IMG/VR virus record: IMGVR_UViG_2936514734_000001
Location: 128,001-192,000 of that record
Length of the DNA: 64,000 nt
Reading direction: 5' to 3' (one strand)
Source: a virus
Taxonomy: Duplodnaviria; Caudoviricetes
The notes beneath the pieces are model-generated. The model saw nothing but the letters and a program-made list of their open reading frames with translations. It was not told the origin of the DNA and did not search any database. Below are positions 20,516 to 63,004 of the stretch, piece by piece (positions within the stretch are counted from its first letter, which is position 1; each line of letters begins with the position of its first letter). The position numbers were made by a program, and so were the translations under genes.

Positions 20516-20527
20516 AGAATATATTCA

Positions 20528-20723
20528 TGTGCTTACAGCGGGAGAGTCCTGACCCCTAGACGACATCGCTCCTTCCCCAGCCAGTAAAAGGTGAGAAATC
20601 TTTTACAGCAAGGTATGTAACACTGTACCCTAAAAAAGTTTCTCAGGCTTTTCTAAGTATTTTCAAGTGTATACGCAAAACGAAGCACGGATTCGAACCG
20701 TGGTTGCTCCCCTTGTAAGCACA
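20528..20723 (-). ncRNA. Circularly permuted tRNA-like RNA (YrlA/Y-RNA-like topology)
   Basis: Termini pair (UGUGCUUACA/UGUAAGCACA). T-arm CACGG-TTCGAAT-CCGTG lies 5' of D-arm GTCT-AGGGGTC-AGGAC; CTCCC/GGGAG stem continues into the terminal helix. Confidence 0.65.
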
Positions 20724-20881
20724 CGAAATATAAGGCGAGGTAATGGGGAATCGAACCCCAATAGTCACACCAGCGATAACCTACTTCTTTTAACTAGTAT
20801 TATACAAAGTAGAAAACAGGAATCGAACCCTATCGGTCAACCATGCTTACCTCATAAAAAGTGGGGGCGTTAGCCCCCGTA

Positions 20882-20995
20882 TAGACAAGGCAGGACTTGA
20901 ACCTGCAGTGGAGTTATTTATATATATCCTCTCATCCCATTTTTCAGGGCGTGTTTGCCAGGCGCGATCGCAACCTATATTCCACCACTTGTCTA
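20882..20995 (-). ncRNA. Aberrant class-II tRNA-like element (expanded D-loop, non-canonical anticodon arm)
   Basis: Acceptor AGACAAG/CTTGTCT; T-arm GCAGG-TTCAAGT-CCTGC; extra hairpin in the D-loop. Confidence 0.55.
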
Positions 20996-21136
20996 GTGTC
21001 CTTTGACCTGTACGCCTCCGAAGGGACACGTCTTTTAAGGGGAGACGCACAGGTTTTGCATTTCGCTAAGCTTAGATAGCTTAGACCGCCTGCTTGGCTA
21101 ACTTTTATAGTTCACATTAAAATGGTGAACCATTAA

Positions 21137-21209: not shown

Positions 21210-21218
21210 ATAATAGCA

Positions 21219-21271
21219 ATCAACTAAGGGGAATTGAACCCTTTTCGACTACCGACAAGTCTCTTAGTTGA
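21219..21271 (-). ncRNA. Anticodon-less mini tRNA-like element
   Basis: TCAACTA/TAGTTGA acceptor, GACT/AGTC D-like hairpin, AGGG-TTCAATT-CCCC T-arm; no anticodon arm. Confidence 0.5.
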
Positions 21272-21278
21272 CCTTGAG

Positions 21279-21349
21279 TGATCTTAACAGGAGTTGAACC
21301 TGTGAGTGATAGTGTTTATCTATCGCGTTGACCGCTTCGCCATAAGACC
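21279..21349 (-). tRNA. Atypical tRNA (anticodon loop ATAAACA, nominal AAA); pseudo or mimic
   Basis: Full cloverleaf, but non-canonical anticodon loop. Confidence 0.55.
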
Positions 21350-21801: not shown

Positions 21802-21877
21802 TGGCGATCCCGACCGGATTTGAACCGGCGATCTCCTGCGTGACAGGCAGGCGTGTTAACCGCTACACTACGAGACC
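21802..21877 (-). tRNA. tRNA-Asp(GUC)
   Basis: CCTGC-CTGTCAC-GCAGG; CCA. Confidence 0.92.
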
Positions 21878-21962: not shown

Positions 21963-22040
21963 TGGTCCGGGTGGAAAGACTTGAACTCTCGGCCTCCTGC
22001 TCCCAAAGCAGGCGCTCTAACCAAACTGAGCTACACCCGG
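21963..22040 (-). tRNA. tRNA-Pro(UGG)
   Basis: CCTGC-TTTGGGA-GCAGG; CCA. Confidence 0.9.
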
Positions 22041-22046
22041 ATTTTT

Positions 22047-22220
22047 TGGCGTGCACGGGCTGGAATCGAACCGCCCTTCCACTATGGTCTATCCTATTCT
22101 GACAATAGGGGTTTGTCATAGCTGATCTCTCGCCAACCTAACCGTATCCTTTCCTTCATGTTGTCAGATGCATGAAATACTCCAACGCTTCGTGAAAGGT
22201 TAGCTTCGCCTGAGCTGCAC
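22047..22220 (-). ncRNA. 174-nt CCA-terminated tRNA-like RNA with expanded internal domain
   Basis: GTGCA/GTGCAC-GCCA acceptor; T-arm GGGCGG-TTCGATT-CCAGCCC; two internal hairpins with complementary loops. Confidence 0.65.
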
Positions 22221-22231
22221 ATATTAAATAA

Positions 22232-22305
22232 TGGCTCTTGATTGACTTGAACAATCGACCTTTCCCTTATGAGGGGAACGCTCTAACCAACTGAGCTAAA
22301 GAGCC
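22232..22305 (-). tRNA. tRNA-Met/Ile2(CAU)
   Basis: TTCCC-CTCATAA-GGGAA. Confidence 0.85.
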
Positions 22306-22389: not shown

Positions 22390-22462
22390 TGGTTGCAGAG
22401 GCAGGAGTTGAACCTGCGTAGTCTTGGTTATGAGCCAAGATGGAATACCCATTCACACTGCT
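22390..22462 (-). tRNA. tRNA-Met(CAU), initiator-like (1:72 mismatch), short D-arm
   Basis: CTTGG-CTCATAA-CCAAG; ACCA end. Confidence 0.7.
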
Positions 22463-22596
22463 ATAATGAAAGACTCCTATGATATTCCCACACATCATAG
22501 GAGTTATTATGATACGGCTATATATCATAATTCTTCTTTTCATACTTCAAGAAAGGAGTGACTTCGTGGCGGGTTATCTTCATAACCCATAATAAA

Positions 22597-22669
22597 AGGT
22601 GCGCCTTACAGGAATTGAACCTGTCCTCGCCCGCGCGGTTGGGCAGTACTACCGCTATACTAAAGGCGC
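22597..22669 (-). tRNA. Atypical tRNA, undetermined anticodon (8-nt loop AACCGCGC)
   Basis: Good acceptor, D and T arms; aberrant anticodon loop; ends ACCT. Confidence 0.55.
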
Positions 22670-23219: not shown

Positions 23220-23221
23220 AT

Positions 23222-23305
23222 TGGCACCCATTGAAGGAATCGAACCTCTTGGGAATGGTTTTGGAGACCATCGACTTACCTCTCGTCTTTAACCCTCTAA
23301 TGGAT
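23222..23305 (-). tRNA. Second tRNA-Trp(CCA) with ~10-nt insertion between acceptor stem and D-arm
   Basis: ATGGT-CTCCAAA-ACCAT; acceptor ATCCATT/AATGGGT-GCCA. Confidence 0.65.
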
Positions 23306-23310
23306 ATTGA

Positions 23311-23987: not shown

Positions 23988-24062
23988 ATAATGAGTAAGG
24001 AGCAACCCTCTGCACCACGGACTCGAACCGTGACCCCTACTACTTAATGTGACTGTTTGAAT

Positions 24063-40645: not shown

Positions 40646-41854
40646 TTAATGCGCCTTAAAGTTATAAAGCGGCTTAATAATATTATCAATAACAATTGAG
40701 TCTTTTACGTTTTGAACAATTTCCTCTATTGGCTTGTATACCATAGGAGCTTCATCTAGCGTAGATTGCTCTACAGATGTTGTCCATACACCAGACATTG
40801 TTTCTTTAAATTCATCTAATGACAGTTTTTCCTTAGCTTTAGAACGAGACATGATACGTCCAGCTCCGTGCGGTGCTGAGAAATTCCAATCCGGATTGCC
40901 AAGACCTGTAGCAATAATACTACCATCTCTCATATTGATAGGAATGATTACACGTTCTCCTTTTTGTGCAGAAATTGCACCTTTACGAAGAATCATATTT
41001 TCCATGTCAATGTAGTTATGGATAGTAGTAAAATCATCTATTACATTCCAGTCCATGCGTGTAACTATTTCATCAATCATTGCCTTACGATTAAGAAGTG
41101 CATAATGCTGTGCAATCTTCATATCATTCATGTAATCGTCAAAAAGTTGGCCTTCTGCATAAGCAAGTTCCTTTTGAATTTTCGGTTTCTTGATATTTTT
41201 AAGTGCATCTTGAATTTCAGATTGACGACCAGCAGCTATTAATTCAGCAATTAAGCGATCTTTTTCATGTTTTACATTCATCAATTCATCATAAGCACGA
41301 TTTTGATAATGCTCAGCTATTTGTTTTCCTAGATTACGAGAACCCGAGTGAATTACAAGAACGACCTTATCATCTAATTCATTAAGCTCAATAAAATGAT
41401 TTCCTCCGCCTAGTGTCCCAATAGAATCCTTAGCACGATCTAGATTAAATGGTGCTCGAACGTTTCTAAAATCTACGCGTTTAGATAATAGGTGTCGTTG
41501 ACTATTAGAGCGAACACTAAATCCGCTTGGAACATGTTTGCGAATAACATCATCAAGCTGGTCAAAATTAACTTCTGTTTTGTTCTTATCAATAATTGCT
41601 ACTTCCATACCACAGCCAATATCAACACCAACTAAATTAGGAACAATCTTGTCTTGAATAGTCATTGTTGTGCCAATCGTACATCCAGCACCAGCATGTG
41701 TATCAGGCATAATACGAATCTGACTGTCTTTTACAAATTCTTGATTACATAGCTGAACAATTTGAGACATAGCTGTAGTTTCTACATTGTCAGTGAACAC
41801 TTTTGCTGTATTATATTTACCTGTTAGTTCTATCATTGGTATCATTCTCCCCAT
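40646..41854 (-). CDS. rtcB: RtcB RNA ligase
   Basis: MPDTHAG, VGVDIGCG, GTLGGGNHFIE, HSGSR, HNY, HGAGR, DEAPMVYK. Confidence 0.95.
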   Translation of the reverse strand: MGRMIPMIELTGKYNTAKVFTDNVETTAMSQIVQLCNQEFVKDSQIRIMPDTHAGAGCTIGTTMTIQDKIVPNLVGVDIGCGMEVAIIDKNKTEVNFDQLDDVIRKHVPSGFSVRSNSQRHLLSKRVDFRNVRAPFNLDRAKDSIGTLGGGNHFIELNELDDKVVLVIHSGSRNLGKQIAEHYQNRAYDELMNVKHEKDRLIAELIAAGRQSEIQDALKNIKKPKIQKELAYAEGQLFDDYMNDMKIAQHYALLNRKAMIDEIVTRMDWNVIDDFTTIHNYIDMENMILRKGAISAQKGERVIIPINMRDGSIIATGLGNPDWNFSAPHGAGRIMSRSKAKEKLSLDEFKETMSGVWTTSVEQSTLDEAPMVYKPIEEIVQNVKDSIVIDNIIKPLYNFKAH

Positions 41855-62915: not shown

Positions 62916-63004
62916 GGGGAATGTGAACGGGATTCGAACCCGTGACCCAAGTACCTAGCATACGCATTATAGGTCCATCGCTCTACCTACTGAGCTATCA
63001 CATC
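62916..63004 (-). ncRNA. Isolated tRNA-like RNA with expanded anticodon arm
   Basis: Acceptor GATGTGA/TCACATT; canonical D-arm GCTC/GAGC; T-arm ACGGG-TTCGAAT-CCCGT; ACCTA/TAGGT stem with 12-nt loop. Confidence 0.6.

Follow-up and report, generated by a model that had tools for sequence, protein, structure and literature searches.

A putative non-decoding tRNA-like RNA with complementary apical loops in a phage tRNA array, comparable in architecture to T4 species 1 RNA

We analyzed a 64,000-nucleotide (nt) stretch of viral DNA (the window; positions 128,001 to 192,000 of the IMG/VR record IMGVR_UViG_2936514734_000001) and focused on a 174-nt element at 22047..22220 on the minus strand, inside an array of transfer RNA (tRNA) genes. 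Nucleotide 1 of the RNA corresponds to position 22220 and nt 174 to position 22047. The element is probably a genuine, conserved, stable RNA that is cut from a tRNA precursor and mimics tRNA at its ends without decoding. Judged by its architecture, it is the Bacillus-phage counterpart of phage T4 species 1 RNA (rnaC). The family is absent from Rfam and unannotated in the phage records examined, and we found no description of this RNA in the literature searched. The initial annotation, made from the letters of the window, had proposed an unclassified tRNA-like noncoding RNA with tRNA-like processing and an internal loop-loop domain. That core proposal is supported by the lack of an Rfam or ARAGORN match, by compensatory changes among homologues, and by the constant location of the family inside tRNA arrays.

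The ends of the RNA resemble the top half of a tRNA. In the 5-base-pair (bp) acceptor, GUGCA (nt 1-5; 22216..22220, minus strand, as for all features of the RNA) pairs with UGCAC (nt 166-170), which is followed by discriminator G171 and an encoded CCA (nt 172-174; 22047..22055 from UGCAC through CCA). The adjoining T arm (nt 145-164; 22057..22076) is spelled GGGC-GG / UUCGAUU / CC-A-GCCC, with a 6-bp stem and the T-loop UUCGAUU at 22064-22070 (T-loop motif match, 22063-22071). Acceptor and T arm had both been recognized in the initial annotation, to which we add the bulged A160 (22061) in the T stem. A G6·G165 layer between the 5-bp acceptor and the 6-bp T stem gives a 12-layer stack, as in the 7 + 5 arrangement of tRNA.

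The D and anticodon halves of tRNA are replaced by two hairpin-closed arms with mutually complementary loops. Directly after the acceptor, GCUCAGG (nt 6-12; 22209..22215) is a candidate D-loop mimic; its CUC pairs with GAG at nt 92-94 in the consensus fold, and its GG may contact the T-loop at the elbow, docking there as G18-G19 would. The long arm (nt 15-86; 22135..22206) consists of a base formed by AA/UU and CUAACC/GGUUAG (18-23/78-83), a variable middle, and an apical hairpin (hairpin 1, nt 44-67; 22154..22177). The core of this hairpin, UUCAUG-CAUCUGACAA-CAUGAA (nt 45-66), carries a 10-nt loop whose predicted kissing residues are nt 53-59 (22162-22168). The junction GAGAUC (nt 92-97; 22124..22129), invariant in all nine distinct sequences described below, leads into the second arm (nt 99-140; 22081..22122), which has a GCUAUG/CAUAGU stem (99-104/135-140), an internal loop, and the apical hairpin CCUAU-UGUCAGA-AUAGG (nt 112-128), with predicted kissing residues at nt 117-123 (22098-22104). 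Both hairpins and both helices had been picked out earlier, the second helix in the shorter form CUAUG/CAUAG. Our hand-drawn structure contains 43 nested and 7 loop-loop pairs, all standard.

As had been noted, the element sits in tandem between two tRNA genes. Upstream lies tRNA-Met(cat) at 22232..22305, with an 11-nt spacer, and downstream tRNA-Pro(tgg) at 21963..22040, with a 6-nt spacer; both are on the minus strand, carry an encoded CCA, and are called by ARAGORN and Rfam. The minus-strand array spans ~20.4-24.0 kb of the window and comprises 17 tRNA genes by ARAGORN, 16 of them also by Rfam. The source record is a 239-kb virus that CheckV scores as complete. Its genes, including those for Amidase_3+LysM endolysins, RecA, SSB, and thymidine kinase, indicate a large phage with a Gram-positive, probably Bacillus-like, host. 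Public runs containing the stretch are rhizosphere, root, and soil metagenomes and some coded isolates, with no RNA run among those listed.

Searches for known families returned nothing on the element. Rfam 15 gives no match at gathering thresholds or at E <= 10, consistent with the earlier description as unclassified, and ARAGORN calls neither a tRNA nor a transfer-messenger RNA (tmRNA). The RNA has the acceptor, T arm, and 3' NCCA of a tRNA (5-bp acceptor, 6-bp T stem with a bulged A); a D arm and a 7-nt anticodon loop within a 70-95-nt cloverleaf are missing from this 174-nt molecule, the arms of which measure 72 and 42 nt. A known family, for example an intron-containing tRNA, had been named as the outcome that would overturn the assignment. 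Neither Rfam nor ARAGORN with introns at default thresholds identifies one; at ps70-80, the sole outcome is a forced tRNA-Ser(aga) of 78 nt on nt 72-174 that requires a 25-nt intron, has a mismatched acceptor, and leaves out the conserved 5' end. We also rejected an anticodon-like reading of the UGUCAGA loop, in which position 33 is G and which is only 6 nt long in relatives. The GOLLD and ROOL models of Rfam give no match at the gathering threshold or at E <= 10.

The Y RNA-like YrlA (RF02553) was rejected as well. Like the window RNA, YrlA is a noncoding tRNA mimic with a T arm and a D-loop-like module, and it also occurs in phages (PMC4201824). Its tRNA-like module is internal and permuted and its ends form the Ro60-binding stem, whereas the topology of the window RNA is not permuted and its ends form the acceptor. 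The Rfam YrlA model matches only junctions of adjacent tRNAs, not the element, and no TROVE/Ro60 gene was found in the 239-kb genome, with control genomes positive for TROVE.

Homologues of the RNA were found in unrelated Bacillus phages. In a blastn search against 50,697 phage records, the 3' 100 nt had matches of 78-82% identity in nine records, which stand for eight Bacillus phages of the genus Tsarbombavirus (Herelleviridae); none of the nine matches is covered by an annotated feature. The full homologues are 179-181 nt long and occupy the tRNA-array gap between tRNA-Asn or tRNA-Ser and tRNA-Gly wherever tRNAs are annotated; for BC-T25, the record of which has no tRNA annotation, ARAGORN places the homologue between tRNA-Ser and tRNA-Gly. 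Three IMG/VR contigs of identical sequence (L007, L008, and L010) contribute one further variant, and a fourth IMG/VR match is the TsarBomba genome itself. The covariance model that we built from this family (R1) scores 119.5 bits on the window copy, which is one of the sequences R1 was built from.

Wider searches did not enlarge the family. IMG/VR scans with the exact 3' end, a relaxed 3' end, or the T arm with its bulge returned only L007, L008, L010, and TsarBomba. Looser patterns (CTCAGG followed by the T-loop, with or without GAGATC) applied to IMG/VR and, in one scan, to metagenomes gave no new member among the matches listed, as judged with R1 and a regular-expression and acceptor screen; the matches listed were mostly adjacent tRNAs or coding sequence. 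GTDB genome contigs yielded two chance pattern matches and no family member. Neither tblastn with the 861-amino-acid (aa) neighbor protein nor a search with the 206-aa neighbor found relatives of the window phage, leaving no syntenic arrays for comparison.

In Emiliahah (L013:167-300) and BC-T25 (L014:157-300), the homologue is immediately preceded on its upstream side by a second oversize tRNA-like RNA, ~130-145 nt long. The acceptor of this RNA has 8 bp (GAAUCGUG/CACGGUUC), its T arm reads UGUGGG-UUCGAGU-CCCAUCA, and its tail is ACC; ARAGORN and Rfam both leave it uncalled. The BC-T25 record includes it in a spurious "hypothetical protein" coding sequence just upstream of the homologue.

The homologues preserve the fold of the window copy. 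All sequences share one four-way layout in RNAalifold, made up of the acceptor, a long arm of three segments closed by a 3-bp CUC/GAG helix, the second arm, and the T arm. In the alignment of nine distinct sequences, 94.6% of pair cells are standard, compared with 38-47% when partners are slid by 1-3 columns, and nine pairs show compensatory changes on both sides. None of 500 shuffles reached the observed pairing, covariation score, or compensated-cell count, and one had as many compensated pairs as the alignment. Because it is kept by covariation in homologues, the nested fold of the 174-nt RNA goes beyond chance.

The changes leave particular segments intact. Acceptor cells are paired in 100% of cases, with pair 2 alternating between U-A and U·G and pair 3 between G-C and G·U. 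Consensus helices 3-5 of the long arm contain both-side changes, and the stem of hairpin 1 is wholly swapped (UUCAUG/CAUGAA in the window copy vs CGCAGG/CCUGUG in the Bacillus phages) around a retained loop core, AUCUG. The basal stem of the second arm is likewise swapped in L008 (CUAUG/CAUAG vs GUGGUGAG/CUCAUUAC) and also shows C-G vs A-U; the loop core CAGA of this arm is invariant. One T-stem pair varies among G-C, G·U, and A-U. Invariant or nearly so in the nine sequences are the 5' segment GUGCA(G/A)CUCAGG, GAGAUC, both loop cores, and GGUUCGAUUCCAG; GCUCAGG has a single variable position (nt 6, which is A in Emiliahah), and the 3' end is CCG, not CCA, in Emiliahah and BC-T25.

Natural variants of the window copy in public-run contigs lend the fold independent support; they carry 4 or 9 differences, all within nt 22-90. 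The variants C22U, C47U, and C61U each convert C-G to U·G, and U44·G67 becomes G·U in one lineage and a C/U mismatch in the other, such that five of the six stem pairs touched by variants are still paired; the other changes fall at unpaired positions. No change falls in the 3' half (nt 95-174) or in either kissing loop. These data bear on whether the element could be a decayed tRNA gene, that is, a pseudo-tRNA with insertions or an unrecognized intron that no longer has a function. The array does hold several further aberrant tRNA-like pieces, and the forced tRNA-Ser(aga) described above could be taken as a remnant, but that call drops the conserved 5' end, has a mismatched acceptor, and disappears at default thresholds. 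Decay is highly improbable: the element is shared by a 239-kb phage and Herelleviridae of 160 kb, its loops are invariant and its other changes compensatory, and variants avoid the 3' half.

The two apical loops of the window copy are complementary, as had been reported, over UCUGACA (nt 53-59) and UGUCAGA (nt 117-123), which can form seven Watson-Crick pairs. A 7-nt match between a 10-nt and a 7-nt loop is expected in ~2e-4 of random loop pairs and in 1e-3 of same-loop shuffles. The Bacillus-phage loops, UAAUCUGUGU and AGCAGA, could pair as UCUGU/GCAGA; here A57-U119 of the window copy is changed on both sides to U·G. Complementarity in homologues, on which the initial annotation had staked its loop-loop domain, is thus kept but reduced from 7 bp to 5 bp (four Watson-Crick pairs plus one G-U). 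We consider a loop-loop contact likely on the basis of these predicted pairings. The best evidence that the contact matters is that three loop-pair sequences in three phage groups, the third being that of the T4 relatives, all stay complementary.

T4 RNAC is a stable product of the T4 tRNA operon that has been known since the 1970s, and precursors of species 1 RNA are substrates of RNase P. It is one of two small stable RNAs from the tRNA region, their roles being listed as unknown (PMC3014915, PMC9697503), and it lies within the same primary transcript as the T4 tRNAs (PMC2330249). When folded, the 139-nt T4 rnaC begins with a 7-layer acceptor-like stem containing a tandem U·U and with the motif AGGA. 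A long arm comes next, separated by a linker from a short hairpin, and the molecule is completed by a 5-bp T arm with UUCGAAU and by the 3' strand. Its apical loops, UUGACG and CGUCAA, are fully complementary (P ~1e-3), a property for which we found no description in the literature searched. In five divergent Tevenvirinae (T4, IME523, KM16, KaAlpha, and NM4.3), the loop sequences never vary, the stems that carry them are replaced, and covariation is seen in the T and acceptor stems. Like the window RNA, rnaC has no Rfam family.

The two RNAs have the same layout. Each is encoded within a cluster of phage tRNA genes and on their strand, and both have tRNA-like termini next to a canonical T arm in a 12-layer stack, an AGG(A) motif after the acceptor, a long arm followed by a short one, and complementary apical loops, predicted to pair, with a common UGAC/GUCA core. 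They differ in that rnaC has a 7-layer acceptor with a tandem U·U, a 5-bp T stem without a bulge, no encoded CCA, and neither GCUCAGG nor GAGAUC. It is also shorter (139 nt vs 174-181 nt), and its hosts are enterobacteria, whereas the window family belongs to Bacillus. The occurrence in Bacillus phages of a second, sequence-unrelated RNA of the rnaC design suggests that the design itself, namely tRNA-like ends plus one long and one short arm whose loops are complementary, is under selection.

Two rnaC copies are unusual in their own right. In Klebsiella phage KaAlpha (L256:128-266), the apical hairpins are reverse complements over ~17 nt and the minimum-energy fold is one long duplex; a switch from kissing to an extended duplex is conceivable. 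In Enterobacter phage IME523 (L254:120-259), the T-loop is UGCAUGC, not UUCGAAU, and the stem is kept.

Several points weigh against the interpretation given at the outset. The folding energy of the window RNA is unremarkable (z = -1.44 for the minimum free energy). The kissing contact is a prediction, and the 5-bp match of the Bacillus-phage loops is not significant by itself (P ~0.07); we accordingly describe complementarity as conserved but weakened. A model built from the five Tevenvirinae rnaC sequences (R2) finds no match on the window element and R1 none on T4 rnaC, giving no sign of common descent. With the same layout but no cross-detection, we claim the same architecture for the two RNAs and not shared ancestry. 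T4 RNAC, moreover, has no known function (PMC3014915, PMC9697503). Finally, in the Bacillus-phage and T4 versions the long arm is much longer than the short one. A kiss there would require a sharp bend, which could lie at the conserved 4x4 internal loop ACAG/GAAG, or would have to be intermolecular.

The last point raises the question of self-assembly, in which the two loops, neither of them self-complementary, would pair between molecules. Closed dimers or head-to-tail oligomers would result, each presenting several tRNA-like heads. The unequal arms disfavor a simple intramolecular kiss, the KaAlpha hairpins have their ~17-nt complementarity, and complementarity is kept in three sequence versions. 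A precedent is offered by ROOL and GOLLD, structured RNAs of phages and prophages that lie in tRNA arrays and homo-oligomerize, partly via kissing loops, which matter in these RNAs (PMC12286853, PMC12990946). ROOL and GOLLD are 3-5 times larger and lack tRNA-like termini, and the ornate RNAs known so far greatly exceed the window RNA in size. The window copy has arms of nearly equal length (~19 vs 18 layers), which makes an intramolecular kiss easy. We regard this self-assembly reading as unlikely; in the non-decoding mimic that we favor, the apical loops would pair either within one molecule or between molecules.

The tRNA-like domain of tmRNA offers another comparison. In tmRNA, as in the window RNA, the ends form an acceptor and a T arm, a single-stranded GG-containing segment substitutes for the D-loop, a long helix leaves the junction, and the 3' end is CCA. 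The window RNA differs from tmRNA in having no conserved G3·U70/A73, no tag reading frame, and no pseudoknot series, and in having a second arm between the long helix and the T arm. Assignment as a tmRNA was rejected. The window copy has G3-C168 (G3-C70 in tRNA numbering) and G at position 73, the discriminator is G in all nine sequences, and neither ARAGORN nor Rfam gives a tmRNA match on the element. The earlier claim that tmRNA identity elements are lacking holds for the window copy, although seven of nine family members do have G3·U70. The accompanying claim that a tag reading frame is missing agrees with the ARAGORN tmRNA search, which was negative also at a lowered threshold.

G3·U70 is the main determinant for alanyl-tRNA synthetase and works even in minihelices. 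An aminoacylated RNA, the minihelix of which would be charged by a host synthetase and its amino acid used outside decoding (in tmRNA-like rescue or as a transferase donor), would accord with the G3·U70 majority, the encoded CCA, the 12-layer acceptor/T minihelix, and the canonical T-loop. In the window copy and Emiliahah, G3-C70 replaces G3·U70, which argues that G3·U70 is not under selection. The discriminator is G and not A, pair 2-71 is U-A or U·G and not G-C, neither a tag reading frame nor a tmRNA call is present, and synthetases that need an anticodon would find none. Charging, which the initial annotation had allowed for, is distinctly unlikely in light of these features.

RNase P and the 3'-end machinery recognize as substrate a 12-layer acceptor/T minihelix that has a canonical T-loop. 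The element would thus be transcribed within the polycistronic tRNA precursor, and RNase P would free its 5' end. RNase P cleavage at the next tRNA would leave a 6-nt trailer, and trimming would then expose the CCA; where a copy ends in CCG, RNase Z and CCA addition would be required. No sigma-70-like promoter fitting our scan criteria lies immediately upstream of the RNA, and promoter and terminator scan counts are at the level of shuffles. Given the 11- and 6-nt spacers and the lack of such a promoter, excision from the array transcript is the simplest route.

The same evidence could be read to mean that the element is only a processing or scaffold element, supplying RNase P and 3'-processing sites or acting as a folding insulator for neighboring tRNAs. 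The family always lies between tRNAs, with very short spacers, and the window copy has no sigma-70-like promoter immediately upstream by the scan above. A spacer would not need two conserved arms, invariant loop cores, the GAGAUC junction, or an unchanged 3' half, and elsewhere in the array tRNAs are spaced by only 3-11 nt without such an element. We consider a purely processing role improbable.

As a non-decoding mimic, the RNA would present the top half of a tRNA to tRNA-recognizing proteins, could not be decoded, and would offer no anticodon loop to cut. Such a mimic is favored by the arms, which are not anticodon-like, and by the flipping of G3·U70 to G3-C70 among close relatives. Phage tRNAs counter tRNA-cleaving defenses (PMC10264068, PMC11464382, PMC11555353). 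A role as decoy, sponge, or adaptor in the conflict between phage and host over tRNAs is our best, if tentative, guess at its function.

We also considered a broader and more doubtful proposal, that Tevenvirinae, Bacillus Herelleviridae, and a Bacillus-type jumbo phage share an unrecognized architectural class of RNA, in which the loop contact locks the mimic into a rigid form or links molecules into multivalent assemblies and the RNA acts as a decoy or inhibitor of tRNA-targeting immunity or of tRNA-processing enzymes. If this were true, T4 species 1 RNA would finally be given a function, and if these RNAs act in the tRNA-centered arms race over phage defense, they would represent a new type of RNA-based counter-defense. 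Through the parallel with rnaC, a long-standing question becomes accessible to testing. The parallel brings comparative leverage, in that three differing loop-pair sequences are all complementary, and a culturable system in the TsarBomba-type phages of the B. cereus group. A covariance model of the family would improve phage annotation.

Two RNA/tRNA repair genes occur in the same phage, one for an RtcB RNA ligase (411-aa frame) and the other for a protein of the PolyA_pol/CCA-adding family (512-aa frame). They lie at ~40685-41725 of the window (minus strand) and at C1:194968-195336 of the genome, outside the window. Together with the aberrant tRNA-like pieces of the array, they point to an investment in tRNA repair, in keeping with the current view of phage tRNAs as a counter to tRNA-cleaving defenses.

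Those pieces include at least seven more T-loop motifs without an ARAGORN or Rfam tRNA call, within 20516-21135, 21211-21277, 23220-23308, and 23988-24060 (minus strand). Among the uncalled elements are a ~115-nt piece at ~20880-20995 that is closed by AGACAAG/CUUGUCU and has an expanded interior, a mini element of ~55 nt at 21219-21271 (UCAACUAAG...CUUAGUUGA), small pieces with only a T arm at ~20690-20830, and a degenerate Trp-like element at ~23225-23305. Three ARAGORN calls, at 22598-22669, 21278-21349, and 62917-63004 (minus strand), are odd: one has a 4-base anticodon (ccgc) and could represent an 8-nt loop of the frameshift-suppressor type, and the others are tRNA-Phe(aaa) and tRNA-Tyr(ata), the latter far from the array. 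A 13-bp hairpin, ACUCCUAUGAU...AUCAUAGGAGU, followed by a weak U-tract, lies at 22473-22504 (minus strand) in the 135-nt gap upstream of the tRNA-Met at 22390-22462, inside the array.

In one relative of the window copy, from public run X12, the contig below position 22042, just past the 3' end of the RNA, is not tRNA-Pro and instead matches part of the tRNA-Asp gene of the window (21802-21877). With tRNA-Asp letters beyond its 3' end in this contig, the 174-nt element appears to move between array positions.
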